This document shows, piece after piece, positions 13,429 through 46,304 of a DNA stretch of 64,000 nucleotides. The stretch spans positions 266 to 64,265 of the forward strand of contig DASWJN010000144.1 in the NCBI GenBank assembly GCA_036397135.1. The letters run 5' to 3'. Position 1 is the first letter of the stretch. Each line of letters opens with the position of its first letter. The position numbers were made by a program, and so were the translations under genes. This DNA comes from Candidatus Methylomirabilota bacterium (GTDB taxonomy: Bacteria; Methylomirabilota; Methylomirabilia; Rokubacteriales; CSP1-6). A model generated the notes under the pieces. The model did no database searches and was not told where the DNA came from. It saw only the letters and a list, made by a program, of their open reading frames with translations.

Positions 13429-13429
13429 C

Positions 13430-24993: not shown

Positions 24994-25013
24994 ATGAGGC
25001 GTCGGACAATCGA

Positions 25014-25842: not shown

Positions 25843-26020
25843 GCCGGCCTCGCCGGTCCACCTTCCAGGCGCCGATGATCCGGTCGGGCGGCACCACGTC
25901 GTTGGGCCCGAACGTCCCGTCGACCACGTAGACCCAGCCGCCCGGGTTCCGCCGGGCCTCCTCGTGCATCGCCGGCGTCGGCTCCGGCGGGACCTTCTTC
26001 CGGCGCCGGAACGGCCACAT
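25793..26020 (-). CDS. small conserved hypothetical protein downstream of hyuB
   Basis: 75-aa ORF MWPFRRRKKVPPEPTPAMHEEARRNPGGWVYVVDGTFGPNDVVPPDRIIGAWKVDRRGRLTG, 5 nt after the hyuB stop. Its 3-prime end overlaps the convergent GNAT gene. Confidence 0.4.
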   Translation of the reverse strand: MWPFRRRKKVPPEPTPAMHEEARRNPGGWVYVVDGTFGPNDVVPPDRIIGAWKVDRRGRLTGKYKPNRDYRGADP

Positions 26021-26025
26021 CGCGC

Positions 26026-30220: not shown

Positions 30221-30799
30221 ATGAGCCACTTCTTCGCCTACCTCTCGCGCATGCGGTTCATCCGGCGCTGGGGGCTGATGCACAGCACCCACGCCGAGAA
30301 CATCCAGGAACACAGCCTGCGGGTGGCGATGATCGCCCACGCGCTGGCCCTCGTCCGCAACCGCCTGTACGGGGGCGGGCTGAGCGCCGAGCGCGTGGCC
30401 GTCCGCGCCATGTATCACGACGCCAGCGAGGTCCTCACCGGCGACCTCCCCCGTCCGGTGAAGTACTTCAATCCCGAGATCGAGACGTCGTACCGCCGCA
30501 TCGAGGCCGTCGCCCGACAGAAACTGCTCGAGATGGTGCCGGCGGCGCTCCGGGCCGACTACGCGGCGCTGCTGGGGCCGGAGGGCGCCGCCGACGGTGA
30601 CGAGGCGCTCATCAAGGCGGCGGACAAGCTGTGCGCATATCTGAAGTGCCTGGAGGAGATCACCGCCGGCAACCGCGAGTTCGCCGAGGCCGAGAAGGCG
30701 CTGCGGGGCACCATCGAGGCGATCGACCTGCCGGAGGTCCGCTACTTCGTCGAGACCTTCGTGCCGAGCTTTCGGCTCACCCTCGACGACCTCAGGTAG
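30221..30799 (+). CDS. yfbR: HD-domain 5-prime-deoxynucleotidase (YfbR family)
   Basis: MSHFFAYLSRMRFIRRWGLMHSTHAENIQEHSLRVAMIAHAL...YHDASEVLTGDLP closely matches the YfbR N-terminus and HD motif. Confidence 0.8.
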   Translation: MSHFFAYLSRMRFIRRWGLMHSTHAENIQEHSLRVAMIAHALALVRNRLYGGGLSAERVAVRAMYHDASEVLTGDLPRPVKYFNPEIETSYRRIEAVARQKLLEMVPAALRADYAALLGPEGAADGDEALIKAADKLCAYLKCLEEITAGNREFAEAEKALRGTIEAIDLPEVRYFVETFVPSFRLTLDDLR

Positions 30800-31217
30800 A
30801 CGCGGCGGCCGGCGCCGGCGGCGCCCACGCCGACTCGATCAGCGCGACCGCCTCGTCCACCGCGGCGCGGATCGCGGGGGTGTTGGCTTCGCGCTCGGCC
30901 AGCGCCACCACGAAGCCGATGCAGCTGGTGGCCAGCAGCAGGGTGCCGTCGTCGGCCGAGAACATCGCGGTCTGGAAGCTTCCGCGGTTCAGGCGGCTGG
31001 CCCCCACCTCGAGATCGCGCCCGAGGGTGGCGGCCAGCGCGGCCAGCGGCTCCAGGGCCACGGTGGGCGCGACCTCGGAGGCGATGACGAAGCCGTCCGG
31101 CGCGACCAGCAGCGCGCCCCGCACCGCGGGGCGGCGCGCCAGCCCCACCACGATGTCACGCACCTGGCGTCCGCGCGAGGTCCCGTCCAGCTCCAGTCCC
31201 AGCTTCAGTCGGCTCAT
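30792..31217 (-). CDS. Roadblock/LC7 domain protein (operon gene 13)
   Basis: ORF 30792..31295 trimmed to ATG 31217 (ATGA overlap with the upstream stop). VRGALLVAPDGFVIASE...GSFQTAMFSADDGTLLLA is a typical Robl_LC7 pattern. Confidence 0.65.
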   Translation of the reverse strand: MSRLKLGLELDGTSRGRQVRDIVVGLARRPAVRGALLVAPDGFVIASEVAPTVALEPLAALAATLGRDLEVGASRLNRGSFQTAMFSADDGTLLLATSCIGFVVALAEREANTPAIRAAVDEAVALIESAWAPPAPAAAST

Positions 31218-32017
31218 GACACTCTCCTGGGGCTCGCCGTCCCGGCGGCGGCCTCGTCCTTCGCCACGGCCAGCTCGTGCTGGGCGGCCGCCCACAGCCG
31301 GTTGACCTCCAGCAGTCCCTGGGTGAGATGCGTCGTCCGCGGCAGCGTCAGCGCCAGCGTGAGCGTGGCGTCGGCGCGCACGAAGTGTCGCTCGCCGGCG
31401 TCCTCGACGACCGCCCGTCGGAGCGGCCCCAGACCGGCGCGGCCGAGCGCGGCGGCGGCGAGCCCGACCGCCCGGGCGAGCCGGTGGCCCAGCTCGGCGG
31501 CGCTGGCGGGCCGGGCCAAGATCAGCCCACCGTCGTGGCCCACCAGGAACAGCGCGCCGGCCGGGCCGGGCATCCGGAGCCGGTCCAGGCGCAACCCGGC
31601 GGGCGGCGAGGCCGGCGCCCGCGCGGCGAGCCCATCGAGCACCGCCCGGGCCTCCGGGAAGTCGGGGTAGGCGCGCAGGGCCCGCACGAGGGCGTCACGG
31701 CAGGCGTCGAGATCGCCCTCTTCCAGCTGGAGGCGGGCCAGTCCGAGGAGGGCGCGCGGGTGCGCCGGATCGCGGGCGAGCACCCACTGGAACTCCTGCT
31801 TGGCCGGCGCGCCGGTGCGTTGCGCCACGTGCAGGTACGCCGCGAGCAGATGGCCGGTGATGCTGGCGGGATCGATCGCCAGGCCCTCGGCCACCGACCT
31901 GGCCGCTTCCGCGTAACGGCCCTCCCGCCGGAGACGATTGGCCTGGCTGAACAGTTCGGCCGGCGTTCGCGCCCGGCGCGCCCCCGCCGGGCGCCACAAG
32001 CCGCGCAAGGCGCTCAC
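31214..32017 (-). CDS. TPR repeat protein with C-terminal Roadblock-like domain (operon gene 12)
   Basis: GTG 32017 overlaps the ATPase stop (GTGA). TPR-like helices (GRYAEAARSVAEGLAIDP, ARLQLEEGDLDACRDALVRALRAYPDFPEA), then AGALFLVGHDGGLILARP...RRAVVEDAGERHFV. Confidence 0.55.
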   Translation of the reverse strand: MSALRGLWRPAGARRARTPAELFSQANRLRREGRYAEAARSVAEGLAIDPASITGHLLAAYLHVAQRTGAPAKQEFQWVLARDPAHPRALLGLARLQLEEGDLDACRDALVRALRAYPDFPEARAVLDGLAARAPASPPAGLRLDRLRMPGPAGALFLVGHDGGLILARPASAAELGHRLARAVGLAAAALGRAGLGPLRRAVVEDAGERHFVRADATLTLALTLPRTTHLTQGLLEVNRLWAAAQHELAVAKDEAAAGTASPRRVS

Positions 32018-34128
32018 GACAGCGTCACTCTCAGGATCTCCTGCGGCGTCGTGGTGCCCTCCAGCACCTTGGCGAGCCCGGCCTGGCGCAGGGTCTTCAT
32101 GCCCTGGCGCTGCGCCAGCTCGCGGATCTCCGACGTCGCGGCGTTGTGGAGAATCAGATGACGCAACTCGTCGGTGACCGGCATCACCTCGTAGATCGCC
32201 ACCCGACCCTTCAAGCCCGTGAAGTTGCAGGCCGGGCACCCGCGCCCCCGGTACAGGGTCACCGTGCCGCGGCCGTCCGGCGCGTGGCCGAGGGCCACCA
32301 GCTCGTTCTCGTGGGCCTCCCTCGGCTCCTTGCACTCGGTGCAGATCCGCCGGCCCAGCCGCTGGGCCACGATCACGAGCAGCGCGGAGGACAGCAGGAA
32401 CGGCGGCACGCCCATGTCGACCAGCCGCGCCACCGTCGAAGGCCCGTCGTTGGTGTGCAGCGTCGTGAACACGAGGTGGCCGGTGAGGGCGGCCCGGATG
32501 CTGATCTGGGCGGTCTCGAGGTCGCGTGTCTCGCCGACCAGGATCACGTCGGGGTCCTGGCGGAGGAACGAGCGGAGCGCCGCGGCGAACGTGCGGCCGA
32601 TGCCCTCGTTGACCTGGACCTGGTTCACCCCGTGCAGGTTGTACTCGACCGGGTCCTCGGCGGTCATGATGTTGTGCCCGGGCGCGTTGATCGTGGAGAT
32701 CGCCGAGTACAGCGTCGTCGTCTTGCCGGAGCCGGTGGGCCCCGTGATGAGCACCATGCCGTACGGCTGGTGGATCGCGTGGGTGAACCGCTCGTAGCCC
32801 CAGCTGTCGAAGCCGAGCTTGGTCAGATCGAGCTGCAGCGACTCCCGGTCGAGGATCCGGAGGACGGCCTTCTCGCCGAAGATCGTGGGCAGGATCGAGA
32901 GCCGGAAGTCGACCTCGCGCCGGCCGTGGCGAATCTTGATCCGCCCGTCCTGGGGCAGCCGCCGTTCGGCGATGTCGAGGCTGGCCATGATCTTGAGCCG
33001 CGAGATGATGGCGGGCTCGTGGCGCTTGGGCGGCGACGCCACCTCGTGCAGCACGCCGTCGATGCGGAACCGGACACGGAAGTCCTTCTCGTACGGCTCC
33101 CAGTGCAGGTCGGAGGCGCCCTGGCGGATGGCGTCGACCAGGACCGTGTTGACGAGCTTGATGACCGGGGCCTCGTCGGCCGATTCCTTCAGGTCGATGA
33201 CGGTGCCGGCGGCCGGCTCCTCCTCGGCCACCACCTCCAGGCCGGAGACGTCGCTGACGAGCTCGGCCAGGCGTTCGGCCATCGGCGCCGGCGCCGTCGT
33301 GTAGTACCGGTCGATCGCCGCCCTGATCGCCTGGCCGGAGGCGACCACCGGCAACACCCTCAGCCGGGTCCTCGCGGCGATCTCGTCCATGGCGACGACG
33401 TTGGTCGGATCCGCCATGGCCAATGTCAGGCCGCTGTCCACCCGGGCCAGCGGGATGACCTCGTACTTGCGCGCGATGTACGAGGGCACCAGCGCCAGCA
33501 CGTCGGCGCTCACCGTGTACTGCTCGATCGCCACCGAGGGCAGGCCATGCTCCTTGGACAGGATCTCGACCAGCTTCTCCTCGCTGACGAACCCGCGGCG
33601 GGTCAGCACCTTGCCGAGCCGCTCCTTCGAGCGCCGGTGCTCGCGGAGCGCGTCGTACAGCTGGTCCGACGAGATCAGCCCCTCGGCCACCAGCACGTCG
33701 CCCAGGCGGCTCCGGCGCCGGCCGGACCGGCTGCGGGGAGCGGCGGACGTTTGCCCGCGCATCATGAACGGCGGTGGCGAGGCCACGGGGGGCGGGACGC
33801 CGCGCATCCGGGCGTTGGGCGGGGCGGACGACGGCGCCGGCAGCGGGACGGCGCCCGGGGGAGCCAGGTACACCGCCGGCTCGGCCCAGTCCGGTTGGGG
33901 CGGCGGCGGTGCGGCCGCCAGGGGCGGCGCGGTCAGCGTGGCCAGGCGTGCGAGCGTCTCGGCCAGCCGGGGCTGGTCGCCCAGCCGCTCGTAGATCTCG
34001 CGCAGCGACTCGAGCGTCGGTGCGTCGGGGCCGCCGGCTTCCAGCACGCTCTCGAACACCCCCGCGGTGTCGCGGAGCTCACGCTGCTCCTCCGGCGACA
34101 GCCGCCGGTCAGGCGGGACGATGGTCAC
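32014..34128 (-). CDS. PilB/GspE-family secretion ATPase with a 140-aa Pro-rich N-terminal extension and an MshEN-like N-domain (operon gene 11)
   Basis: 704-aa ORF. Walker A GPTGSGKTTT, VILVGETRD, TGHLVFTTLHTN, tetracysteine CTEC...CPAC. N-domain RLGDVLVAEGLISSDQLYDAL then RLGKVLTRRGFVSEEKLVEIL. Confidence 0.9.
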   Translation of the reverse strand: MTIVPPDRRLSPEEQRELRDTAGVFESVLEAGGPDAPTLESLREIYERLGDQPRLAETLARLATLTAPPLAAAPPPPQPDWAEPAVYLAPPGAVPLPAPSSAPPNARMRGVPPPVASPPPFMMRGQTSAAPRSRSGRRRSRLGDVLVAEGLISSDQLYDALREHRRSKERLGKVLTRRGFVSEEKLVEILSKEHGLPSVAIEQYTVSADVLALVPSYIARKYEVIPLARVDSGLTLAMADPTNVVAMDEIAARTRLRVLPVVASGQAIRAAIDRYYTTAPAPMAERLAELVSDVSGLEVVAEEEPAAGTVIDLKESADEAPVIKLVNTVLVDAIRQGASDLHWEPYEKDFRVRFRIDGVLHEVASPPKRHEPAIISRLKIMASLDIAERRLPQDGRIKIRHGRREVDFRLSILPTIFGEKAVLRILDRESLQLDLTKLGFDSWGYERFTHAIHQPYGMVLITGPTGSGKTTTLYSAISTINAPGHNIMTAEDPVEYNLHGVNQVQVNEGIGRTFAAALRSFLRQDPDVILVGETRDLETAQISIRAALTGHLVFTTLHTNDGPSTVARLVDMGVPPFLLSSALLVIVAQRLGRRICTECKEPREAHENELVALGHAPDGRGTVTLYRGRGCPACNFTGLKGRVAIYEVMPVTDELRHLILHNAATSEIRELAQRQGMKTLRQAGLAKVLEGTTTPQEILRVTLS

Positions 34129-34594
34129 TCGCGCGCCGGGTCTCCTCGGCGGTCAGGGGCGCGGCCAGCACCCCGACCAGCCTCGGCCGCGCGCGCGTCT
34201 CCGCGAGGATGGCGCCGACGGAGGAGCAGGTTTCCCGGGCGAACAGGCGCACCATGCCGATCGTGGTGCGCTCGTCGAAGATGGCGAGCAGGATCGTGTT
34301 GTCGTCGACCGTCGAGACGTGCAGGCTCTCCTTGACGCCCTCGTGGAACAAGACCGAGAACTCGCTCTCGCCGAGCAGGCGGGCCAACGCCGCCGTCGAG
34401 CTGAAGGCCGCGGCGGCCAGGGCGCCGATGGAGCCGACGTCGAGCGTGCGGGCGGTGCCCGCCTCGGCCAGCGGCTGGCCGCTGCGGTCGATGAGCAGGG
34501 CGGCCAAACAGCTGGAGTCGCTCAGGAACCGGAGCAGGACGGCGTCGATGCGCGCCGCGTCGCTCTCGTGGATCACGAGGTCGTGGATTCTCAC
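34109..34594 (-). CDS. mglB: MglB-like Roadblock/LC7 protein (operon gene 10)
   Basis: GTG 34594 follows AGGAGG and overlaps the mglA stop (GTGA). CLAALLIDRSGQPLAEAG...SVLFHEGVKESLHVSTVDDNTILLAIF. Sits directly downstream of mglA as in known mglAB pairs. Confidence 0.7.
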   Translation of the reverse strand: MRIHDLVIHESDAARIDAVLLRFLSDSSCLAALLIDRSGQPLAEAGTARTLDVGSIGALAAAAFSSTAALARLLGESEFSVLFHEGVKESLHVSTVDDNTILLAIFDERTTIGMVRLFARETCSSVGAILAETRARPRLVGVLAAPLTAEETRRASDHRPA

Positions 34595-35199
34595 GCGCGG
34601 GCCTCCTGGGTCTGGCCGAACTCCTTGACGAGCACCATGCGCGACACCGTGTTGAGGGTGTCGAAGACGCCGGTCCCGTCGACGGCGACGGCCTCGAACG
34701 CGGGGACGCGGCGGGCGCCGCGGTTGAGCAGATACTCCAGGTAGTCGAGCGGGGCGACCGCGCCGAGGTCGCGCTTGTTGTACTGGATGACGTGGGGCGT
34801 CGTGGCCAGCGCGAGGCCGTACTCCTTCAGGTTGTCGTCCAGGTTGCGGAAGCTCTCGACGGCGTCGCGCAAGCGGTCCCACTGCGAGTCGGCCACGAAC
34901 ACCACCCCGTCCACGCCACGGAGCACCAGCTTGCGCGTCATGTTGTAGTGCGTCTGGCCCGGCACGGTGTAGAGCTGGAAGCGCGTCGTGAACCCGCGCA
35001 CGCCGGTCGCCGACACCGGCAGGAAGTCGAAGAAGAGGGTGCGGTCGTCGCCGGTGGCCAGCGAGATCATCTTGCCCTTGTTGTCCTCGGGCAGGCAGCG
35101 GTGGATGTACTGGAGATTCGCCGTCTTGCCGGCCAGCCCGGGGCCGTAGTAGACGACCTTGAAGTTGATGACGCGCGCCGCGTAGTTGATGATCGACAC
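34591..35199 (-). CDS. mglA: MglA-family Ras-like small GTPase (operon gene 9)
   Basis: GTG 35199. VSIINYAARVINFKVVYYGPGLAGKTANLQYI...DRTLFFDFLP...LYTVPGQ...IQYNKRDL is nearly colinear with Myxococcus MglA as I remember it. Confidence 0.9.
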   Translation of the reverse strand: MSIINYAARVINFKVVYYGPGLAGKTANLQYIHRCLPEDNKGKMISLATGDDRTLFFDFLPVSATGVRGFTTRFQLYTVPGQTHYNMTRKLVLRGVDGVVFVADSQWDRLRDAVESFRNLDDNLKEYGLALATTPHVIQYNKRDLGAVAPLDYLEYLLNRGARRVPAFEAVAVDGTGVFDTLNTVSRMVLVKEFGQTQEARA

Positions 35200-35201
35200 C
35201 G

Positions 35202-37313
35202 TCAGCGCGCCTCCAGCAATGCCGCCGCCCGCGCCACCGCGCGATGGGCGCGCCCCGCCAGCGCCACCTGGCCTGCGGCCGCCAGCATGGCCGGTGCGCC
35301 GGGCTGCCCGCGCAGCGGCCGCACGACGGCGCGCTCGCGTCCCCGTCGCAGCTCGATCGACTCCAGCCGGCCCAGCGCCGCCTCGTCGTGGCCGGTGACC
35401 AGCGCCTCGTGCACCGCGCGCGCCATGCCGGCGAGCACGCCGCTGTCCCGCTCCGCGAACACGTAGACGCCCGGCGCCGCGCCCGCGGCGCCGGCGACCG
35501 AGGACGTGACCGCCCCGAACACCGCCAGCGCCCGCGCGGCCTCGCCGAGCCGGCGGTGGCCGCTGCCCCCCTGGGCGGGCGCCGTCGTGACCGCGCTCAG
35601 CGCGACGCCCGGCGCCGCGATCGCCATCACGGCGCCGGTGGCCCGCCCGGCCCGCGCGGAGAGCAGCTCGAGCATCGCCACCGGTCCGTTGCGGCGGACC
35701 GCGGCGACGAGGCACCCCCGACTGCCGAGCGGCGTCAGCACGCAGGCCACGCGCGAGGTCCGGATCGTCATCTGCTCGACGACCCACGGCGCCAGGCGCT
35801 CGATGAGCGCCGCCGCCCGCGCGGCCAGCGCGTCGATGGGCTCGCGCACGAGCGTCGGAGGGACGAAGCACACGAGCGGGCGCCCGCCCGGGCGACGCGT
35901 CCGCCAGTCGAAGGCGCCCAGCGGCGTCAGGCCGAGCGCGAGGGCGCGGGCCAGGGCTTCGCTCTCTTCGGTCTCGAGCGTGGCGGCGACCGGCGCCGCG
36001 ACGGCTGGCGCCGGCGTGCGATCGGCCACCGGGGGCGCGGGCACGGCCACGACGGGCGGCTCGTCAGGCGCGACGGCGACGGGGGCCGGCGGCGAAGGCT
36101 CCGCGATCGTCATCGCCGGCGGCGGCGAGGGCTCGGCCGCGACCGGGGCCTCGGGCATCGGCGGCCCCGGGTTGAACGGCGCGGGGAACTGGCCGATCTC
36201 CGAGAGGTCGGCGGCGGGCGCCTCGCGGCGCCACAGCTCGGTGGGGACCTGGCGCACGACCTCGTCCATCGGCAACGAGAGCCCCCATCCCGCGAGGCGC
36301 TGGCGCATCTCGGCGGGCGGCGCTGCGAACGCCAGCTCGGGAAACTGGTCTTCGATCAGCGTCCAGGCAATCTCGACGGCGCCCTCGCCGAGCTGAGGCA
36401 GGATGAGCCGCTGCGGCACCAGCAGCACGTGCGGCTCACGCAGGCTCTCGGCCAGCCGCTCGGGCGGGAGCAGAAAGGCGGTGGGCGGCAGCTGCGCGGC
36501 GACCCGCGCGAACGTGATGCGCACGACCGGCTCGTCGGCCACGGGCGGCTGGTGCGTGGCCACGGACGGCGGCCTGGGCGCGGGGGCCGGCAGCTCGACC
36601 GCGGGCGGCGGAGGCGGCGCCGGGGGGGGCACGCTCGGAGGCTGCGGCGTGAAAGCGATCGGCTCCGGAACGTCGTTCGGCAGCTCCAGCACGGCCACCG
36701 CCGGCTGCGCAGGCTCGGAGAGCTCGACCGGCCGCGGATGCCCGGCGCGCTCGAACGACGTGGGTCCAGGTCGCGCCGTCCGCGCAGAGAGCGGCGACAG
36801 TCGCAGCACCGCGTCCCAGTTGGGTGCCGCCGCCGAGAGTGCCGGGTCGGGCGGCCGCGCGGCGGGCGGCGCGCTCCCCATCCACTCGACCCGCAAGGCA
36901 GTGCGCACCGGGACGAGGCGGCTGCGCCAGGCCAGCATCACCACCGGCGCGGCGACGAGATGGACGATCGGGGCGGGCAGGTAGGTCCAGAGCGCGCGCA
37001 GCAGCGCGCCCTCCAGCGACATCGGATGCGCCAGCGAGAGCGTGAACGCGCTGGCCAGCGCCAGCGCGACGTTGACGCCGCAGGCAGCCAGCGCCCAGCC
37101 GATCCGGCGGTCCAGCGGCAGGCGGCGCAGCCCGACCAGCGCGAGCGCGAGGTAGAGCACGGGGGGCGCCGTCGCGACTTTCCACGACGGCATGGCCAGC
37201 CCCCGTCCGAGCTCGGCCTCGAAGAGCACGGTGGTGGCCGCGGCCGCGGCCCCCGCCACGGCGACGACCCGGAGCGCGCGCGACAGACGGACCCGGGTGC
37301 GATGTCTGGCCAT
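35202..37313 (-). CDS. membrane-anchored Pro/Ala-rich protein with two Roadblock-like C-terminal repeats, function unknown (operon gene 8)
   Basis: 703-aa ORF. About four N-terminal TM helices, long PxP linkers, a conserved-looking block VVRITFARVAAQLPPTAFLL...LILPQLGEGAVEIAW, then RPLVCFVPP...GCLVAAVRRNGPVAMLE and GVYVFAERDSGVLAGM segments. Confidence 0.6.
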   Translation of the reverse strand: MARHRTRVRLSRALRVVAVAGAAAAATTVLFEAELGRGLAMPSWKVATAPPVLYLALALVGLRRLPLDRRIGWALAACGVNVALALASAFTLSLAHPMSLEGALLRALWTYLPAPIVHLVAAPVVMLAWRSRLVPVRTALRVEWMGSAPPAARPPDPALSAAAPNWDAVLRLSPLSARTARPGPTSFERAGHPRPVELSEPAQPAVAVLELPNDVPEPIAFTPQPPSVPPPAPPPPPAVELPAPAPRPPSVATHQPPVADEPVVRITFARVAAQLPPTAFLLPPERLAESLREPHVLLVPQRLILPQLGEGAVEIAWTLIEDQFPELAFAAPPAEMRQRLAGWGLSLPMDEVVRQVPTELWRREAPAADLSEIGQFPAPFNPGPPMPEAPVAAEPSPPPAMTIAEPSPPAPVAVAPDEPPVVAVPAPPVADRTPAPAVAAPVAATLETEESEALARALALGLTPLGAFDWRTRRPGGRPLVCFVPPTLVREPIDALAARAAALIERLAPWVVEQMTIRTSRVACVLTPLGSRGCLVAAVRRNGPVAMLELLSARAGRATGAVMAIAAPGVALSAVTTAPAQGGSGHRRLGEAARALAVFGAVTSSVAGAAGAAPGVYVFAERDSGVLAGMARAVHEALVTGHDEAALGRLESIELRRGRERAVVRPLRGQPGAPAMLAAAGQVALAGRAHRAVARAAALLEAR

Positions 37314-37316
37314 GGC

Positions 37317-38231: not shown

Positions 38232-38235
38232 GTCC

Positions 38236-39333: not shown

Positions 39334-42107
39334 GACGAGGCCTCCGGGCCGGTGCCCGGCGCCAGCGACGCGACGAGCCGCACGAAGGCGCCCTCGGCCA
39401 CCGGCTTCGTCACGTAGTGGTCGACGCCGAGCCGGCCGGCGAGCGAGCGGTGCTTGACGCCGGCGCGGGTCGTGAGCACGACGACGGGAAGCTCGCGGGT
39501 GGCCGGCCGGCGCCGGACGTCCTCGAGCAGCTCGTAGCCGTTGAGCCCCGGCATCTCGAGATCCGTGACCATCACGTCGAACCGCGACTCGCCGAGCCTG
39601 GTCAGCGCCTCGGCGCCGTCGGGCGCCGTCGTCACGTCGAACCCCGCCTTGTCCAGCATCTGCCCCACGAATTTCCGCACGCTGATCGAGTCGTCCACCA
39701 GCAACACCCTCCGTCGTGGATCACCGGCGACGCCGGCGCCCGGGGTTGGACCGAAGTTCGTGTGAGCGTTCCGCGCGCTCCGCCTCGTGTCCGACTCGGC
39801 GCCGAGTGGACGGGAGCGACGGCCGGGCGACGTCGCCAGCTCGCCCAGCCGCGCCGGGTCGAGCAGCAGCGTCACGCGCCCATCGGCGGAGACGGTGGCG
39901 CCGGCGTAAGGCCCGATGCCGTCGAGGAACGCGCCGAGCGGCTTGACGACGATCTCCGCTCTGTGCAGCACCTGCTCCACCGCGCACGCGAACAGCCCGC
40001 CGCCGCCCCGCAGCGCCAGGACGGGCAGGGACGCCGAGGGCGGCGCCGGCGGCCGGCCCAGCGCATCGTCGAGGTGAATGAGCGGCACCCACCGCCCCTC
40101 GACGAGCGCCGCGTCGCCGTCCGGCCCCGCCCGCCGCGCCGCGGTGCCGAGCGTGGCGATCACGTGCACGGCGTTGAGGGGCACCGCCAGCACTTCGCCG
40201 GCCGCCCGCACCAGCAGGGCCTCGGTGACGAGCACCGTGAGCGGCAGGCGAAGCGTGAATCGGGTGCCGGCGCCCGGCTCGGTGGCGACCTCGATCTCGC
40301 CGTTCAGCCGGCCGACGTTGGTGCGCACCACGTCCATGCCCACGCCGCGGCCGGCCGTGGTCGTCACCTCGGCCGCGGTGCTGAAGCCCGGCCGGAAGAT
40401 CAGGTCGAGCGCCTCACGCTCCGTCATCGCCGCCGCCGTGTCCGGCCGCACGAAGCCCTGGCTGACCGCCCGCCGGCGCAGGTCGTCGGCGTCGATGCCG
40501 CGCCCGTCGTCGGCGACCTCCACCACGACGAAGGCGCCGCGATGGCTGGCTCCCAGCGTCACGGTGCCGGCCGGAGGCTTGCCGCGCGCCCGGCGCTCGT
40601 CGGGCGTCTCGATGCCGTGCCCGACGGCGTTCTGCACCAGGTGCAGCAGCGGGTCCACGATGTGTTCGATGACGCCGGCATCCAGCTCCACCGACTCGCC
40701 GCTGGTCTCGAAGCGCACGCTCTTGCCGGCCGTGCGGGCCGCCTCCTGGCCCTGGCGGACGAAGCGCGTGTAGAGCGTGCCGATCGGCACCAGCCGCGCG
40801 CGCCCGAGCCCGGCCCGCACCTCGCCGGTCAGCCGGTGCACGAGGGCGAGGTCCTCGCGGGCGGCGCGGCCCAGCGCCGTCAGCTCCGTCTGGACCTCGG
40901 CGATGTCCGAGGCGATCTCGGCCACGCTGCGGGCCAGCAGCGTGAAGTCGTCGTACCGGTCGAACTCCAGCTCGGCAAACAGCTCGGCGACCGAGCGGGG
41001 GCGCGGGTGGCGCGTCTCGCCCCCGTCGTCCGCGCCGGCGCGCGCGGGCAGCCGCGCGTCGAGGTGACGGCGCTCGAAATCGGCGACGGCCTCGCCCAGC
41101 CTCGCGCGCGTCGTGAACAGCAGCTCGCCGAGCCGGTCCACCTCGGCCAGCCGGCGCTCGAGGGTGCTGCGGGCGACGATCAGCTCCCCGACCAGATCCA
41201 TCAGGGCGTCGAGGCGCTCCAGGGGGACCCGGATCGTCTGCCGGCCGGCGGGCGCCCGGGCCGGGGAGCGGGGCGGCGGCGGCGAAATCGGCCGCGGCCT
41301 CGCCGGCACCGGAACGATCGCCGCCGCCTCCACCGGTGCCGCCCGCGGCATGGGCTCGGCCGCGCCGAGGAGCGAGGTGAGCCGCTCCCGCAGCCGGACA
41401 ACGACGGCCGTGAGATCGACCGCGGCGGCACCGGCCGGGTCGAGCATGAGCTTGAGGGCGTCGACGGTGGCGAGCGAGGCGTCGAGCGCGGGCGGCGTCA
41501 TCGGTGTCCGGCCCTCGCGGACGGCGACGAGCAGATCCTCCAGGCCGTGGGCCAGCTCGCCGATCGGGGTGCAGCCGACCACGAACGCCGCCCCCTTGAG
41601 GGTGTGCACCGCCCGGAACAGCTCGGCGAGACCCGCCTCGCTCCGGCCCTCGCGCTCGAGGGCGACAATGGCGCCGGTCATCGCCTCGAGATGCTCGGCC
41701 GCTTCCGGGAGAAAATACGCGAGGACCTCGTCGCCGTCGGCGAAGAAGCGGGCCAGCTCCCGGCGGACCGGATCGGGCGGGGTCTCGGGCGCCGGTGTGT
41801 CGAGCGCCGACTTGAGCGCCTCCAGCAGCGCGGCGAGCTCGCCCACCGCAATCTCGCCCGCGGCCCGGGAGGCGCCTGGCAACGGCGCGAACGCCAGCTC
41901 CACCGCGCCGGCGAGTGCGGCGACGCCGGGGAAGCCGTGCAGCGAGGCGGCGCCCTTCAACCGGTGCGTGACGACGAAGAGCTCGTCCCAGGCCGGTTCG
42001 GCGCCGGCGGCGAGCCGGCCGATCCCCTCCTCGATGACCGCGAGCGTGTCCCACGCTTCCACGAGGAAGATCGACCGGAGGACATCCTGGTCGGACGGCT
42101 CGTCCAT
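39330..42107 (-). CDS. cheA: CheA-type histidine kinase with two Hpt domains, a CheW-like domain and a C-terminal receiver (operon gene 5)
   Basis: 925-aa ORF. Hpt motifs VVTHRLKGAA and RAVHTLKGAA, IRVPLERLDALMDLVGELIV, HATPase (HLVQNAVGHGIE, DDGRGID, GRGVGMDVV), CheW-like VLAVPLNAVHVI, REC RRVLLVDDSISVRK...DVMVTDLEMPGLNGYE...TKP. Confidence 0.9.
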   Translation of the reverse strand: MDEPSDQDVLRSIFLVEAWDTLAVIEEGIGRLAAGAEPAWDELFVVTHRLKGAASLHGFPGVAALAGAVELAFAPLPGASRAAGEIAVGELAALLEALKSALDTPAPETPPDPVRRELARFFADGDEVLAYFLPEAAEHLEAMTGAIVALEREGRSEAGLAELFRAVHTLKGAAFVVGCTPIGELAHGLEDLLVAVREGRTPMTPPALDASLATVDALKLMLDPAGAAAVDLTAVVVRLRERLTSLLGAAEPMPRAAPVEAAAIVPVPARPRPISPPPPRSPARAPAGRQTIRVPLERLDALMDLVGELIVARSTLERRLAEVDRLGELLFTTRARLGEAVADFERRHLDARLPARAGADDGGETRHPRPRSVAELFAELEFDRYDDFTLLARSVAEIASDIAEVQTELTALGRAAREDLALVHRLTGEVRAGLGRARLVPIGTLYTRFVRQGQEAARTAGKSVRFETSGESVELDAGVIEHIVDPLLHLVQNAVGHGIETPDERRARGKPPAGTVTLGASHRGAFVVVEVADDGRGIDADDLRRRAVSQGFVRPDTAAAMTEREALDLIFRPGFSTAAEVTTTAGRGVGMDVVRTNVGRLNGEIEVATEPGAGTRFTLRLPLTVLVTEALLVRAAGEVLAVPLNAVHVIATLGTAARRAGPDGDAALVEGRWVPLIHLDDALGRPPAPPSASLPVLALRGGGGLFACAVEQVLHRAEIVVKPLGAFLDGIGPYAGATVSADGRVTLLLDPARLGELATSPGRRSRPLGAESDTRRSARNAHTNFGPTPGAGVAGDPRRRVLLVDDSISVRKFVGQMLDKAGFDVTTAPDGAEALTRLGESRFDVMVTDLEMPGLNGYELLEDVRRRPATRELPVVVLTTRAGVKHRSLAGRLGVDHYVTKPVAEGAFVRLVASLAPGTGPEASS

Positions 42108-42115
42108 GCTCGGGC

Positions 42116-43891
42116 TCAGGCCGCGGCCAGCTTGAACCGTGCGAGGCTTCGGGTCAGTTCGTCGGCCAGCTTCACGAGGTCCTCGACGGTCCGGCGGGTC
42201 TGGAGCACCGCCTGCTCGGTGTCGACGGCGACCTGGGCGATGGACTGCATGGCCCGCGCGACCCCCTCCACGCCGTCGACCTGCTCGGCGCTCGTCCGCG
42301 AGATGCCCTCGGCCAGCTCGGCCGAGGCCGTGGACGTCCCGGCGATCTCCCGGAGGTGCTCCTCGGCGCGGATCGTCATCTGGTAGCCGGCCTCGACCTC
42401 GCGCGTCCCCTCCTCCATGGCCGCGACCGCCTCCTGCGTCTCGGTCTGCACGGCACGGATGAGGCCGGCGACGTCCTTGGTGGCCGTGGCCGCCCGCTCG
42501 GCCAGCTTGCGGATCTCGTCGGCGACGACGCCGAACCGGAGGCCCGCCTCGCCGGCGCCGGCCGCCTCGATGGCGGCGTTGAGCGCCAGCAGATTCGTGT
42601 GCGAGGCCAGCTCCTCGATCAGGTGGACGATCTCGGAAATCTCCAGCGAGCGGTCGCCGAGGCCCTTGATCTTCTTGGCGATGATCTGGACCTCGCCGCG
42701 AATGCGCTGCATGCCGTCCAGGCTGTCGCGCACCGCCTGGTCGCCCTGGCGGGCGGCTTCGAGCGTGTGGCGGGCGGCGCCGGCGGCCGCCCCGGCAGTC
42801 GTGGCGACCTCGCGGACGGAACGGCTCATGGCCTCCATGGCGCGGCTGATCGTCGTGACCTCCCGGGCCTGGGCCTGGGCGCCGCTGGCCATCTGGTCGG
42901 TGGCGCCGGTCATGTCGCTGGCGCCGGCCGCCACCCGCAGGGCGGCGTGCCGCACCTCGGCCAGGATCGCGGCGATCTCCTCCACCATGACGTTGATGGA
43001 GTCCACGACGTTGCCGAGCACGTCGGGCGTCACCTGGCCGCGGCGGGAGAGGTCGCCCTGGGCGATCTCCATCGCGGTATCCAGGAAGGTCTGGATGTTC
43101 TTCTGCAGCGCCTCGCGCTTGCGCTTCTCCTCATCGCGCTCGGCCTCGGTCATGACCTGCGCGCGCAGCCGGACGACCGTGTCGTTGAAGGTGTGGGCCA
43201 GCCGGCCGATCTCGTCGCGGGCGCCGACCGTGACCGTCTCGGTGAGGTCGCCGCGGCCGACCCGCTCGGCCACGCGCACGAGCTCGGCGATCGGGCGGGT
43301 GAGCCGCCGGGCGAACACCACGCCGGCCGCCACGGCCACGATCGCGACGCCGCCGAAGACGGCGAACAGGAACCAGCCGGACCGGGCGGCGGCCGCGTCG
43401 ATGCTCGCGCGGTCCATGCCGACCCGGACCGTGCCGAGCGTGCCGCCCAGCATCGGCACGCCGATATCGATGATGCGCCGGGACGCGCCCGTCACGGGGT
43501 GGGCGTACTCGATCTCGTGCACCTGCTTGGCGAGATCGCCCGCCACCAGGTTCTTTTCGACCAGGTCGGGCGGCACGAACGGCACGAACGTGTGGGCGAT
43601 CGGCGTCGTGTTCGCGTCGTAGACCATGACGTACGCCACGCCGCTGATCCCCGCGAACTGGTCGATCAACGCCTGCACCGTGGAGGCGTCGCGCGTGAGG
43701 ATGAGGTCGACGCCGGAGGAGGCCAGGCTGTTGGCGATGGCCGTGCCCTTGGAGGTGAACTCCTCGGTCATCCGCTCCCGCAACGTCTGCACCGAGACGT
43801 ACCAGGTCACGGCGGCCAGCGGAATGAGGACGGCCGCCAGGAACCCGTTGATCCTCGCCAGGAGACCGAACCGCGGCGGGCTGCTCTTCAT
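42116..43891 (-). CDS. methyl-accepting chemotaxis protein with periplasmic sensor domain and HAMP (operon gene 4)
   Basis: 591-aa ORF. Two TM segments flank a roughly 150-aa domain. [25 protein letters not shown]. Signalling hairpin [42 protein letters not shown]. Confidence 0.9.
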
Positions 43892-43903
43892 GACGCGCTC
43901 TCC

Positions 43904-45229
43904 TCAGGCCTGTACGGCCGCCGACCAGTCGGTGATCGGCACCCACCGTTCCCCGTCGACGCGGGTGAAGTACACGCCGTCCAGACCCTGGTGGCGCTCG
44001 GGGCCGAAGGTGAGGGGGGCGCCGATGCCGAGGTCGAAGCTCCTGAGCGACTCCAGTGCCAGCCGGAAGCCGGTCCGGGTCGGGTGCGGCCCCGCCCGCC
44101 GCAGCGCCTCCACCATCACGCGGGCGTTCACGTAGCCCTCCAGGCTGATGAAGCTGTAGCGCTGCGGCACGTACTTCTCGTCGCGGAGGGCCGGCGGCAG
44201 CACGGGGTTGTGGCGCTCCATCAGGCCGCGGTACTCCACCACGCCGGGCAGCGCGACGTCGTCGTGGCTCGGCACCACCTGCGAGTTCACCAGCGCCCGC
44301 GTGTAGTCGCGGCCGGCCTCCTTGCCGTGCTGGACGAGCAGGCGGAGCATCGCGTCGGAACCGACGAAGGAGACGTTGGAGATCGGCACGGTCCAGCCGA
44401 GGTCCCGCGCCGTGCGCACGAAGGCGCCGCAACCCTGGTAGGCGCCCGTGCACAGCACGGCGTCGATGCCGGCCTGGCGCAGGGCGTTCACGGCCGGGGC
44501 CATGTCGTCCTCGAACCTCGCCCCCCGCTGGTAGGTCGTCTCGGCGGCGATCCGGGCGCCGCGCGCGGCCAGCGCGCGGCTGACGCCGTCGGTGCCGCTA
44601 CGGCCGTAGGCGTCGGCCTGCGAGTAGACGCCGATGCTGCGGGCGCCCAGCTGCCAGAAGCGGTCGACCAGCGCCGCCATTTCCTGCCGGTACGACGCGC
44701 GGATGTTGAAGACCTGCTCGACGTAGGGCGCCTCGCGCTGGGGCTGGGCGCCGGTGAAGTTGCCGACGAGCACGACGTGCTGATCGGCGTAACGGCGGAT
44801 CACGGGCAGCGCGCGGGTCAGGGTGGGCGTCCCGACGTAATTGGACAGGCAGAACACCGACTCCGTCTCCAGCAGCTGGATGGTGTTCTTGATGCACGGC
44901 AGCGGCTCGTAGTGGTCGTCGAGACCGACCACCGTCAGCATCCGGCCGTACACGCCGCCCCGGGCGTTCACCTCGTCGTAGTACGCCTGGGCACCGCGGT
45001 AGAACTCGGTGCCGAGGCCTGCCGCCGTGCCCTTGAACGCGGCGCTCATCCCGATGCGGATCTCCCGGGCCGTCACCCCGGGCGTGCCCGGGGTGGACGC
45101 CTCGGCCGGAATCCATTTGGTGGGGGCCGGCCGGGCCGGCGCCTGGGCGGCGGCGACGGCGGCGCGCTCCAGGGCGCCGGGCAGCAGCGCGGCGGTGAGC
45201 AGGCGAAGGAGGGCGCGGCGTTCCATCAT
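43904..45229 (-). CDS. periplasmic binding protein, LivK/Peripla_BP_6 type, no cognate permease (operon gene 3)
   Basis: 441-aa ORF with signal peptide. IRIGMSAAFKGTAAGLG.EFYRGAQAYYDEVNARGGVYGR is typical of branched-chain amino acid type binding proteins. The start overlaps the cheW stop (ATGA). Confidence 0.8.
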   Translation of the reverse strand: MMERRALLRLLTAALLPGALERAAVAAAQAPARPAPTKWIPAEASTPGTPGVTAREIRIGMSAAFKGTAAGLGTEFYRGAQAYYDEVNARGGVYGRMLTVVGLDDHYEPLPCIKNTIQLLETESVFCLSNYVGTPTLTRALPVIRRYADQHVVLVGNFTGAQPQREAPYVEQVFNIRASYRQEMAALVDRFWQLGARSIGVYSQADAYGRSGTDGVSRALAARGARIAAETTYQRGARFEDDMAPAVNALRQAGIDAVLCTGAYQGCGAFVRTARDLGWTVPISNVSFVGSDAMLRLLVQHGKEAGRDYTRALVNSQVVPSHDDVALPGVVEYRGLMERHNPVLPPALRDEKYVPQRYSFISLEGYVNARVMVEALRRAGPHPTRTGFRLALESLRSFDLGIGAPLTFGPERHQGLDGVYFTRVDGERWVPITDWSAAVQA

Positions 45230-45726
45230 GATCCTCCCGATGCGGCATTCCAGGGTCGGCGGAGCGCGGCCAGCACCGCGCGGGCGTCGAGGAGCGTGGC
45301 CGGGCCGCCGGACCCCGCGGTCAGCTCGCCGGCGGCCAGCCCCTCGTGGTCGCCGCGCTCGGTCAGCGGTCGCACGGTCTCGAAGGCGGTGAGTCCGAGC
45401 ACGCGCTCGATGAGGATGGCGGCCCGCCGCTCGCCGTCGGCGAGCACGAGCGCGTGCCCGCGCCCGGGCGCGGCCGGCACGGGCAACCCCAGCAGCAGGC
45501 GCGCCTCGACCACGGGCAGGACGTTGCCGCGCAGGTTCATGACACCCAGCACCGACGCCGGAGCGCCGGGCACCGGAGTCGTCGCGTCGAGGACGACGAC
45601 CTCGCGCGCATCCGCCACGTCGACCGCGAACGCCCGACCGCCGAGCTGGACCACGCAGGCCCGGCGGACGGGTGTCGGCTCCGGGTCCGGCGCCTCGAGA
45701 TCGGGGACGGGCGTCTCAGCGGACAA
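45226..45726 (-). CDS. cheW: CheW-like coupling protein (operon gene 2)
   Basis: 166-aa ORF (TTG start at 45726; a later start is possible). VVQLGGRAFAVDVADAREVV...VLGVMNLRGNVLPVV is the CheW core. Confidence 0.8.
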   Translation of the reverse strand: MSAETPVPDLEAPDPEPTPVRRACVVQLGGRAFAVDVADAREVVVLDATTPVPGAPASVLGVMNLRGNVLPVVEARLLLGLPVPAAPGRGHALVLADGERRAAILIERVLGLTAFETVRPLTERGDHEGLAAGELTAGSGGPATLLDARAVLAALRRPWNAASGGS

Positions 45727-46078
45727 GGCGTCCCACCGCGGTGAGCAGCTGGTCGGAGGTGAAGGGCTTGCCCAGATAGTCGTCGGCGCCCTGCCGCTTG
45801 CCCCAGGCGCGATCGCTCTCCTGGTTCTTGGAGGACACCAGCACGACCGGCGTGGCCCGGGTGTCCGCGTTCCGCTTGAGCGCGCGCAGCAGATCGTAGC
45901 CGTTGCGCCTGGGCATGACGATGTCGAGCAGGAGCACGTCGGGGCGCTCGGCGGTCACCTTGTCCTCCAGCGCGTCGCCGTCGAGGAGCGTCACGACCTC
46001 GTGCCCGACGCCGCGAAGGATCGATTCCATCAGCTTCAGCTCGGAGTAGGCGTCGTCGACCACCATCACCTTCGCCAT
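45716..46078 (-). CDS. cheY: CheY-like single-domain response regulator (operon gene 1)
   Basis: ATG 46078 after GGAGGAG. MAKVMVVDDAYSELK...DVLLLDIVMPRRNGYD...LGKPF. Confidence 0.85.
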   Translation of the reverse strand: MAKVMVVDDAYSELKLMESILRGVGHEVVTLLDGDALEDKVTAERPDVLLLDIVMPRRNGYDLLRALKRNADTRATPVVLVSSKNQESDRAWGKRQGADDYLGKPFTSDQLLTAVGRLVR

Positions 46079-46119
46079 CGGCTCCTCCGGGTTCGGGTTG
46101 GCGGTGCGCGGACGACGGG

Positions 46120-46135
46120 TGCAACGCCACTGCCA
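46120..46135 (-). promoter_or_regulatory. sigma-54 (-24/-12) promoter candidate for the 13-gene operon
   Basis: The minus strand reads TTGGCAGtggcgTTGCA. GG and GC are correctly spaced, with one deviation (TGGCAG for TGGCAC). 43 nt upstream of the cheY ATG. Confidence 0.45.
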
Positions 46136-46304
46136 AGCGGCACGATGCCGGTGTGTTCGGAAGGCGGACATGACGCCCCCTGACACTGTCGGGTGGGCAT
46201 CATCCGCGCCGTCGGGACACGGCGTCGTGCCGCCCCGTGACACGCCCGCGTCAAGCCGTCAGCGCCGGCCGCGAGGGAGGGACGGACTGACATATGATGA
46301 GGCC

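Follow-up and report, generated by a model that had tools for sequence, protein, structure and literature searches.

A thirteen-gene locus of Rokubacteria that sets a chemosensory pathway, an MglA/MglB switch, Roadblock proteins and a PilB ATPase side by side

Introduction

In Myxococcus xanthus, the small GTPase MglA in its GTP-bound form binds the tetratricopeptide repeat (TPR) protein SgmX, which brings the pilus extension ATPase PilB to the pole, a step that MglB prevents at the opposite pole; direct contact between SgmX and PilB is a matter still unsettled, and gliding is under the control of the same MglA/MglB module as well (PMC7519303). MglB also associates with the Roadblock protein MglC and the response regulator RomR in a complex that determines the GTPase-activating protein (GAP) activity and is broken by MglA-GTP (PMC10329633). 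The wiring from chemosensory (Che) proteins to MglA/MglB, and from MglA to the pilus motor, has so far been worked out in Myxococcus from separate loci, and mglA does not lie near its partner genes in M. xanthus or in Bdellovibrio (PMC4316618). We describe here a 64,000-nucleotide (nt) stretch of the Candidatus Methylomirabilota bacterium contig DASWJN010000144.1 (assembly GCA_036397135.1, positions 266 to 64,265; order Rokubacteriales), called the window below, in which one apparent operon sets a receptor, a kinase, receivers, a GTPase, its GAP, Roadblock proteins, TPR and PATAN adaptors and PilB side by side. By analogy with the systems described so far, we think it fairly probable that this operon encodes a chemosensory pathway steering the activity of a type IVa pilus (T4aP) via an MglA/MglB polarity switch.

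Several other described systems bear on this locus. In Synechocystis, PATAN domains bind PilB1 and PilC (bioRxiv 10.1101/2021.06.11.447907), and in the Tax1 pathway of the same organism the receiver (REC) domain of PixL and the protein PixH act as modulators or sinks (PMC11181946). A 2014 survey of small GTPases found the neighbourhoods of Group-1 MglA to be variable, with PATAN neighbours only occasional (PMC4316618), and twitching-motility genes have been reported for most Rokubacteria assemblies (PMC5712423). Neither a Che–MglA–PilB operon nor such clusters with MglA in Rokubacteria or Verrucomicrobiota were described in the literature searched.

The locus and its thirteen genes

The unit consists of 13 minus-strand genes (30792-46078) and spans 15,287 nt. 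They are listed here from its head (aa, amino acids; TM, transmembrane segment; MCP, methyl-accepting chemotaxis protein).

g1, 45716-46078 (-): single-domain CheY-like response regulator, 120 aa (Pfam Response_reg, 3e-24)
g2, 45226-45726 (-): CheW coupling protein, 166 aa, TTG start (Pfam CheW, 1e-23)
g3, 43904-45229 (-): periplasmic LivK-type solute-binding protein, 441 aa (Pfam Peripla_BP_6, 1.3e-46)
g4, 42116-43891 (-): transmembrane chemoreceptor, 591 aa (Pfam sCache_3_2, HAMP and MCPsignal)
g5, 39330-42107 (-): hybrid CheA, 925 aa, with Hpt, Hpt, H-kinase_dim, HATPase_c, CheW and REC domains (Pfam)
g6, 38236-39333 (-): pseudo-receiver, Pro/Ala-rich linker and C-terminal PATAN domain (DUF4388), 365 aa (DUF4388, 1.9e-12; REC, 30.2 bits, at the cutoff)
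g7, 37317-38231 (-): phosphorylatable REC, Pro-rich linker and Roadblock/LC7 domain, 304 aa (Pfam REC, 2.9e-22; Robl_LC7, 5.7e-9)
g8, 35202-37313 (-): lineage-specific membrane protein, 703 aa, described from an AlphaFold2 (AF2) model, with no Pfam or NCBIfam match
g9, 34591-35199 (-): predicted Group-1 MglA small GTPase, 202 aa (PDB matches)
g10, 34109-34594 (-): homologue of the Roadblock-fold GAP MglB, 161 aa (Pfam Robl_LC7, 4.5e-10; 39.6 bits against a cutoff of 23)
g11, 32014-34128 (-): predicted type IVa pilus extension ATPase PilB, 704 aa (TIGR02538; MshEN and T2SSE domains)
g12, 31214-32017 (-): TPR array (residues 19-131) and predicted Roadblock-like domain (155-260), 267 aa (Pfam TPR_19, 4.8e-11)
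g13, 30792-31217 (-): single-domain Roadblock/LC7 protein, 141 aa (Pfam Robl_LC7, 5.8e-7)

All 13 open reading frames (ORFs), translated at these coordinates, are free of internal stops. Their third-position G+C content of 0.90-0.98 is of the coding type for a window of 73% G+C, a composition at which ORFs alone carry little weight, and the product lengths of g4-g10 are identical in independent gene calls made on the same metagenomic contig (ENA ERZ27256989). Neighbouring genes overlap by 4 nt at five junctions (g2/g3, g5/g6, g9/g10, g11/g12 and g12/g13), by 11 nt at g1/g2 (cheY/cheW) and by 20 nt at g10/g11 (mglB/pilB), the other junctions being gaps of 2-12 nt. At the far end, g13 and the convergent gene yfbR overlap by 8 nt at their 3' ends (30792-30799), as they do in two of the related loci described below (L087 and L088), and this leaves no room for a terminator-like hairpin between the two genes. 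Scans for sigma-70 promoters and terminators gave no signal inside the operon above background.

An earlier reading of this sequence, hereafter the original prediction, had described thirteen packed minus-strand ORFs with these overlaps and gaps, ending convergently against yfbR, and translation and the junction check agree with it on each count. Its domain calls also stood, on the strength of the Pfam scan, of PDB matches for MglA and MglB and of a structure model for the C-terminus of g12. Thus, a CheA-REC with two Hpt domains is found by Pfam and by its HxxKG motifs; the pseudo-REC/PATAN call for g6 agrees with lost active-site residues and a DUF4388 match; the MglA and MglB-like calls agree with matches to characterised structures; and g12 is indeed a TPR protein, whose Roadblock-like part is predicted from structure. 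As for the single transcription unit that had been proposed, gaps of at most 12 nt, one conserved sigma-54-type promoter and a conserved gene order speak for it, but the layout is not universal, g12 and g13 being inverted in about half of the lineages. From its gene spacing and its one conserved promoter, the unit looks like a single transcript.

The MglA/MglB switch

By its sequence motifs, g9 is a Group-1 MglA and a predicted GTPase. It matches Thermus MglA (PDB 3t12) at 1.3e-68 and M. xanthus MglA at 4.6e-65, and Pfam returns only a sub-threshold Arf match. Group-1 MglA proteins are recognised by a TVPGQ motif, an intrinsic arginine finger and a coupled mglB (PMC4316618, Wuichet & Søgaard-Andersen 2014). 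In g9, TVPGQ stands at residues 78-82 instead of DxxGQ, and an intrinsic Arg finger (DRTLFFD) at residue 52 adjoins the G2 threonine and aligns with the corresponding motif of Thermus MglA; both TVPGQ and the arginine are kept in 79 of 79 relatives, including the Verrucomicrobial ones. The product of g10 matches M. xanthus MglB (3e-23) and Thermus MglB (1.6e-13) in the PDB. Its sole NCBIfam match is the equivalog NF052242, a narrow model of Thermus-type MglB, below whose cutoff it stays (71 bits against 200). We infer for g10 a GAP activity on g9.

The PilB ATPase

The original prediction had left g11 as an unclassified, "secretion-type" ATPase, and this call did not hold. The protein scores 712 bits against the PilB equivalog TIGR02538 (cutoff 675.65) and stays below the cutoffs of the GspE, TfpB and ComGA models; its residues 131-703 align end to end with Geobacter PilB (6olj, E 2.4e-194), and Myxococcus PilB likewise aligns over its full length. 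The Walker A motif GPTGSGKT, the Walker B motif and His box (DPDVILVGETRD, TGHLVFTTLHTN) and the tetracysteine motif CTEC…CPAC are conserved. These sequence features point to an orthologue-grade type IVa PilB. In addition, an MshE-type cyclic di-GMP (c-di-GMP) motif (NF053729, 65.3 bits against a cutoff of 38) predicts binding of this second messenger, and the protein carries a 130-residue N-terminal addition made of a moderately conserved segment (about residues 21-65) followed by a variable Pro-rich linker (66-140).

Chemosensory proteins and two further receivers

At the head of the unit, g1 keeps intact the active-site residues DD/D/S/K, as judged by comparison with E. coli CheY, and is preceded by a ribosome-binding site, GGAGGAG, at 46082-46088. 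The cheW gene g2 shows the same 11-nt overlap with g1, and a similar length, in the related loci L087-L089. The solute-binding protein g3 begins with MMERRALLRLL…, a twin-arginine-like signal, and is probably the ligand-presenting partner of the MCP g4. The latter is laid out as TM1, periplasmic sCache_3_2, TM2, HAMP and signalling hairpin, with hydrophobic segments at residues 10-35 and 174-192 and the hairpin tip at residue 448; by arm length, its C-arm of about 20.4 heptads is compatible with 40H receptors. In the hybrid kinase g5, the two HxxKG motifs are HRLKG at residue 48 and HTLKG at residue 168, and the active site of the REC domain is intact. Together, g1, g2, g4 and g5 make up the parts list of the Tfp class of chemosensory systems, i.e., a multi-Hpt CheA with a C-terminal REC, CheW, an MCP and CheY.

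Two further proteins, g6 and g7, have receiver or receiver-like domains. The PATAN domain of g6 scores 47.7 bits against a Pfam cutoff of 25, and its receiver has replaced D13 by Ala, D57 by Arg, T87 by Ala and K109 by Ser. The phospho-acceptor Asp is absent in 34 of 34 homologues, and the conserved Lys is lost too; by its sequence, g6 is a true and conserved pseudo-receiver, and the loss of the phospho-acceptor leaves no direct control of g6 by phosphorylation. The REC active site of g7 is kept in 26 of 26 homologues, its Roadblock profile matches that of g10 (MglB) with an hhalign probability of 96.8%, and the PDB entry closest to the Roadblock domains of g7 and g13 is 7f8m.

Five Pro-rich linkers (26-32% Pro, Ala-rich) occur in four proteins of the operon: g6 (residues 125-255), g7 (120-190), g8 (137-259 and 366-440) and g11 (66-140). 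They are reminiscent of the Pro-rich linker of RomR.

An expanded set of Roadblock domains

Six Roadblock or Roadblock-like domains are counted in the operon (one each in g7, g10, g12 and g13, two in g8), those of g8 and g12 being predicted from structure models. The AF2 model of g8, built from a 50-sequence alignment, reaches a mean predicted local distance difference test (pLDDT) score of 76.5, and more than 90 in the folded domains. Three to four hydrophobic helices belong to the N-terminal helical bundle (1-133); a disordered Pro-rich linker connects this bundle to an alpha/beta domain (262-365), and another Pro-rich linker leads on to two C-terminal alpha-beta-beta-alpha-beta-beta-beta-alpha domains (442-558 and 587-702). 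In a Foldseek search of the PDB with this model, Thermus MglB came out on top (probability 1.0, target TM-score 0.58, over 121 columns), and hhalign finds the two C-terminal domains similar to one another (P = 2.8e-4). In this model, g8 ends in two tandem Roadblock-like domains, and we predict that it tethers them to the membrane. At 90% identity the g8 family falls into 135 clusters, and at 50% it has 455 representatives; all its named sources belong to the Methylomirabilota.

The AF2 model of g12 (pLDDT 85.8) shows 3.5 TPR repeats and a beta-beta-alpha-beta-beta-beta-alpha domain. Among its top 50 Foldseek matches in the PDB, the sole non-TPR one is M. xanthus MglB (6hjm_C, E 2.1e-4, TM-score 0.61), and some g12 homologues are annotated "Roadblock/LC7/MglB family" by JGI. 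At the level of sequence, the C-terminus of g12 gave no match in a PDB sequence search and no significant hhalign match to the operon's Roadblock families, the link between g12 and g13 being weak (hhalign P = 0.005). By analogy with SgmX and Bd2492 (PMC7519303), g12 is a candidate MglA-GTP effector or adaptor to PilB. The nearest PDB entry to g13, again 7f8m, is a Robl_LC7 protein (3.2e-5), and g13 matches the Roadblock domain of g7 in hhalign (81.8%).

Conservation across related loci

To follow the operon in other genomes, we scanned 185,579 species-representative genomes for MglA and mapped all 13 proteins onto the resulting loci, which are numbered with the prefix L. The counts below cover the 50 Rokubacteria-type loci, and each gene is counted only where the locus extends far enough. 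The closest relatives of g9 lie in metagenome-assembled genomes (MAGs) of uncultured Rokubacteria/Methylomirabilota (94-73% identity), followed by Verrucomicrobiota (67-57%). The original prediction had called for a search for MglA beside CheA and a PilB-type ATPase, and this search found the operon core in about 50 related loci. MglB adjoins MglA in 49 of 49 loci, g8 is present in 46/46, g7 in 38/39, g6 in 37/39, CheA in 37/38, the MCP in 32/36, g3 in 25/34, g12 in 38/39, g13 in 37/38, and both cheY and cheW in 5/5. PilB is found at ortholog-level identity in 36 of 47 loci; four of the other 11 show weak partial matches near contig ends, and seven are clearly without it. The Che–MglA–Roadblock core is thus obligatory, and the operon-encoded ATPase common but facultative.

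L087, L088 and L089 have all 13 genes in this order, between the same neighbours and with the 11- and 20-nt overlaps seen here. Elsewhere the arrangement is looser: g12 and g13 are inverted, and so convergent, in 21 of 38 loci, and g3 is absent in the L083 lineage. The linkage nevertheless persists, despite these rearrangements, from 94% down to about 73% MglA identity.

Three observations were made on individual loci. In L021, a cheY gene (15249-15611), 81% identical to g1, is found not at the operon head but downstream of the inverted g12/g13, and no match to g3 or g4 was found there, in a locus that may end too soon upstream to hold them; the order of the modules can be permuted with linkage kept. 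Seven SMAG MAGs (L008, L022, L033, L038, L039, L042 and L043) carry the Rokubacteria-type operon, at 73-90% MglA identity, under the labels Polyangia, Nitrosocosmicus, Nitrosotalea, Acidoferrum, Verrucomicrobiia, Deferrimicrobiaceae and Binatia, and these off-label contigs are probably mis-binned. Lastly, in one lineage a 991-aa multi-GAF/PAS signalling protein is convergent to the operon end (L085, 11244-14219, minus strand; L086, 3753-6728, minus strand), and it could be a link to second-messenger signalling.

MglA and pilus genes in more distant relatives

After the Rokubacteria-type loci, the next-closest MglA group is formed by L046, L047, L048 and L050 (65-67% identity). In this group (in L050, at 3043-15404), the gene order is pilM, two small genes (x224 and a T2SSM/PilO-like one), a secretin gene, x582 (for a 582-aa protein), a REC gene, MglA, MglB, a PATAN+Roadblock fusion and x176 (for a 176-aa protein), with a ParA/MinD-like ATPase (652 aa) further downstream. 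The PATAN–Roadblock fusion is a Rosetta-stone hint of an interaction between PATAN and Roadblock proteins. Among 26 loci of the Verrucomicrobiota type (L051-L082), 22 have the MglA–MglB pair immediately downstream of a PilB-type ATPase. In one of them, L053 (5529-11177), the cluster runs from a TPR+MshEN protein through PilB and a 539-aa HhH+Roadblock protein to a Group-1-type MglA and MglB, and it holds no Che genes; in the literature searched, we found no description of this Verrucomicrobial TPR-MshEN/PilB/Roadblock/MglA/MglB cluster. All three layouts of this MglA clade involve type IV pilus (T4P) genes, and REC, PATAN, Roadblock, TPR, MshEN and PilB are the parts that recur across them.

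Comparison with described systems

With the M. xanthus network of Frz, MglA, MglB, RomR-RomX, MglC, SgmX and PilB, the operon has in common a CheA–REC hybrid kinase, a Group-1 MglA and an MglB Roadblock GAP (PMC7519303, PMC10329633), as well as extra Roadblock proteins, a REC protein with a Pro-rich linker, a TPR effector and PilB as the target. What stands apart from its partner genes in M. xanthus (PMC4316618), however, is gathered here in a single operon. Moreover, REC and Roadblock are here directly joined in one protein, as are TPR and a Roadblock-like domain; g8 has no counterpart, and no RomX or RomY homologue was detected for the operon. The FrzCD receptor of M. xanthus is cytoplasmic, whereas g4 spans the membrane, has its Cache domain in the periplasm and comes with a binding protein, and the window holds neither a FrzZ-type dual REC nor CheR/CheB (FrzF/FrzG). 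We rejected Frz orthology on account of these differences.

To our knowledge, cyanobacterial Tax1 loci lack CheR and CheB. The Tax1/Pix system (PixGHIJL) resembles our operon in its CheY, CheW, MCP, CheA with C-terminal REC and PATAN regulator, and its listed components PixJ, PixL, PixG and PixH include no CheR/CheB; unlike the operon, these components include no MglA/MglB or Roadblock proteins (PMC11181946), and the input is a photoreceptor instead of a periplasmic chemoreceptor. From PatA-type regulators, g6 differs by its reversed domain order (REC then PATAN) and by its dead receiver, the phospho-acceptor being lost in 34/34, so that a PatA-type response regulator identity was rejected.

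The Pil-Chp system of Pseudomonas aeruginosa (PilG/PilH, ChpA) has CheR/CheB homologues, PilK and ChpB, and no small GTPase, in contrast to the operon, whose window is without CheR and CheB. It is a chemosensory pathway by which response regulators polarise T4aP, with a multi-Hpt CheA bearing a C-terminal REC (PMC10519157), and in both respects it is like the pathway proposed here. A c-di-GMP input at the level of PilB is also shared, via FimX there (PMC7519303) and, as predicted, via the ATPase's own MshEN domain here. Outside myxobacteria, MglA affects T4P formation or polar placement in Bdellovibrio bacteriovorus (MglA–Bd2492 (TPR)–RomR) and in Thermus thermophilus (MglA/MglB) (PMC7519303, PMC12024867). 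These cases are alike in setting MglA with a TPR partner and unlike in that no linkage to a Che operon or to pilB is reported for them. We know of no MglB in Bdellovibrio.

Actinobacterial conservons (CvnA–D) also encode together a sensor kinase, a Roadblock protein and an MglA-family GTPase (PMC4316618). Their MglA, however, belongs to Group 2, without Arg finger, their kinase is a membrane histidine kinase and not CheA/MCP, and they include a DUF742 protein and no ATPase output. The operon has no DUF742 protein and no CvnA-type kinase, and its MglA is predicted to be of Group 1, and a conservon was rejected for these reasons. Lastly, in the eukaryotic Ragulator–Rag system, several membrane-tethered Roadblock-fold modules scaffold or regulate a small GTPase. 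The combination in g8 of a predicted membrane anchor and two Roadblock-like domains recalls this arrangement, a resemblance that is purely architectural, with no sequence relationship.

The original prediction could not match the locus to a described system. This stands insofar as we found no paper on the locus in the literature searched, but its logic does match Frz→MglA/MglB→SgmX→PilB and PATAN–PilB1. New are the single-operon layout, the REC–Roadblock, predicted TPR–Roadblock and membrane-tethered tandem-Roadblock proteins, and the phyletic setting; the principle was already known.

Proposed mechanism

The direct evidence consists of the domains present, the phospho-competence of the receivers, the MglA motifs, the PilB orthology and the conservation of the block, and all protein contacts in the following scheme are drawn by analogy. 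The solute-binding protein g3 would present a small nutrient ligand to the Cache chemoreceptor g4, which would control the hybrid kinase g5 through CheW g2. Because no CheR/CheB is present, we propose that the signal would be ended by phosphate sinks, CheY g1 and the REC domain of g5, as in cyanobacterial Tax1. The output receiver would be g7, whose phosphorylation would alter its Roadblock pairing with MglB g10 or with other Roadblock proteins, and the altered pairing would raise or lower GAP activity on MglA g9; g7 would, in this way, be the fused counterpart of RomR (REC) and MglC (Roadblock) in the RomR/MglC/MglB complex. By tethering two Roadblock-like domains to the membrane on Pro-rich linkers, g8 would fix the site at which the switch acts. 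MglA-GTP would then engage g12 (with g13), in parallel with MglA-GTP–SgmX, and this engagement would recruit or activate PilB g11, possibly via its extra N-terminal module. Independently of phosphorylation, the PATAN domain of g6 would bind PilB, like PATAN–PilB1 in Synechocystis, and c-di-GMP would be a second input at the MshEN domain of g11. The pilus machine itself would be encoded elsewhere in the genome.

Alternative explanations

Several observations weigh against a chemosensory pathway that steers a pilus. As the original prediction had said, the 64-kb window is without pilin, platform, secretin, CheR or CheB genes, and PilT was not found either, in Pfam scans of nearly all called genes; PilMNOPQ and a prepilin peptidase are likewise absent from it, a prepilin leader motif occurs in none of its six frames, and g11 is not encoded with pilC, pilT, pilMNOPQ or pilA within these 64 kb. 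The Verrucomicrobial cluster of L053 has no adjoining pilus structural genes. In seven lineages (L013, L018, L019, L020, L023, L025 and L026), PilB is cleanly absent between mglB and g12/g13, from which it follows that the Che–MglA part can work without an operon-encoded ATPase. As for the Roadblock-like ending of g8, the whole-model Foldseek E-value is weak (0.04), and hhalign found no significant profile similarity between its C-terminal domains and the Roadblock families of the operon.

These points lend themselves to other readings. The PilB-type ATPase might drive something other than a motility pilus, be it secretion, DNA uptake, an adhesion fibre or a pilus-independent task, within a self-contained signal-to-GTPase-to-ATPase device. 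The lack of other pilus genes in the window and around the Verrucomicrobial PilB–MglAB cluster speaks for such a device; the 130-residue N-terminal extension of g11 is lineage-specific, and PilB-family ATPases also power type II secretion systems (T2SS), MSHA pili and competence pili. We nevertheless hold this to be improbable, as g11 passes the T4aP PilB cutoff, fails those of GspE, TfpB and ComGA and can be aligned with Geobacter and Myxococcus PilB along their whole length, and as a pilM–secretin cluster surrounds the next-closest MglA group. Besides, we know of no function of a PilB hexamer without its PilC platform. The self-contained device of the original prediction is, in particular, doubtful because PilB is absent in seven lineages, because the sister MglA group lies in that pilM–secretin cluster and because most Rokubacteria assemblies are reported to carry genes for twitching motility (PMC5712423).

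The seven lineages without an operon PilB keep Che, MglA/B, g8, g12 and g13, and this suits a different reading, in which the Che–MglA–Roadblock part is a general polarity controller, PilB a facultative passenger or one output among others, and the main target gliding, polar growth or division, development or polysaccharide export. MglA/MglB does also control gliding in M. xanthus (PMC7519303), and a ParA/MinD-like ATPase follows the MglAB–PATAN–Roadblock genes in L046-L050. On the other hand, no fewer than 36 of the 47 loci have a PilB ortholog, and its 20-nt overlap with mglB recurs; the PATAN and TPR partners belong to classes known to contact PilB or to act upstream of it; all three genomic configurations of the MglA clade involve T4aP genes; and none of the loci examined has linked gliding (Agl/Glt) or polysaccharide genes. 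Such a controller seems to us unlikely, without being far-fetched. That the Che operon, mglAB with accessory genes, and pilB are three uncoupled modules in fortuitous juxtaposition is, finally, very hard to believe. Gene order alone is no proof of interaction, g12/g13 are inverted in about half of the lineages, and both g3 and PilB are dispensable in some; but the linkage is kept from 94% to about 73% MglA identity despite rearrangements, stop/start overlaps cross the module boundaries (g5/g6, g9/g10, g10/g11 and g11/g12), there is one conserved promoter only, and fusions bridge the modules, i.e., REC–Roadblock, TPR–Roadblock and pseudoREC–PATAN here and PATAN–Roadblock in relatives.

If the chemosensory steering of a T4aP via MglA/MglB is the right reading, Rokubacteria, which are uncultured but abundant in soil, are predicted to perform nutrient-directed twitching, and the coupling of Group-1 MglA/MglB to T4aP is extended to Methylomirabilota and Verrucomicrobiota. 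The fusions, including PATAN–Roadblock and TPR–MshEN in relatives, would serve as Rosetta-stone predictions of contacts between REC and Roadblock, between TPR and Roadblock or MglA, and between PATAN and Roadblock or PilB. A bolder version, which we advance as a speculation with rather low odds, is that the six Roadblock(-like) domains form a membrane-tethered scaffold, a counterpart of Ragulator–Rag, in which a pseudo-dimer of Roadblock domains would be anchored in the membrane by g8, the CheA signal would reach the GAP machinery directly through the phosphorylatable g7, and MglA-GTP on this platform would gate the PilB hexamer via the TPR–Roadblock and PATAN adaptors. If this were true, at least two phyla would share the relay from kinase to Roadblock, GTPase and AAA+ motor as a portable cassette, which may drive PilB without need of a conventional polar landmark.

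Promoter region

Upstream of the operon, two elements were recognised.

46120-46135 (-): sigma-54-type -24/-12 element TGGCAG-N5-TTGCA, 41 nt upstream of the cheY ATG, with one mismatch to TGGCAC-N5-TTGC
46152-46190 (-): conserved upstream block GACAgTGTCAG…TGTCATGTCCGCCTTCCGAACACA, whose end lies 17 nt upstream of the -24 element

Over the first element, the intergenic regions of the window, L087, L088 and L089, four lineages in all, can be aligned, with GG and GC fixed and the bases of the spacer differing (GTGGC, GTCGT, ATGAC and GCGCC), and the distant L083/L084 lineage has TGGTAG-N5-TTGCA. Near-matches to the sigma-54 motif are not enriched in the window (42 found versus 54 expected), so that the promoter call rests on position and conservation; on both counts, the motif placed here by the original prediction is upheld in L087, L088, L089 and L083. 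We read the conserved GG/GC with a variable spacer as the footprint of a real -24/-12 promoter, with a predicted dependence on RpoN. In the same alignment, the upstream block is kept in the window, L087 and L088 and is weaker in L089; its consensus across lineages is GACAnTGTCA…TGTCATGTCCGCCTT, and it contains a GACAnTGTC palindrome and a second TGTCA. It may be the site of an activator (enhancer-binding protein). Pfam scans of the 64-kb window found no gene for a sigma-54 activator (Sigma54_activat).

Flanking genes

The remainder of the window is ordinary chromosome. On the yfbR side lie hydantoinase A/B, acyl-CoA dehydrogenase, amidohydrolase and ABC transport genes; on the other side, a phosphoribosyltransferase gene, yicC, remA, gmk, coaBC, a uracil-DNA glycosylase gene, priA, def, fmt, rsmB, rpe, ffh, rimM, trmD and rnhB. 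A mobile-element origin of the operon was rejected, the flanks being core genes (ffh, trmD, priA, gmk) and the neighbours the same in L087-L089. Rfam and tRNA scans of the window returned no matches.

Between the metabolic genes, a low-GC island (23970-26026; 0.60-0.67 against 0.73) was observed. Read from translations, it contains an antitoxin-like ORF with its end at 24484 and a ParE/RelE-like toxin (24481-24768, plus strand), whose N-terminus is partly repeated near 24954-25010, as well as a GNAT-like acetyltransferase (25363-25842). In L087 and L088, the acyl-CoA dehydrogenase pair comes directly after yfbR, and by this arrangement the island and hydantoinase A/B (26026-30140) are extra in the window.

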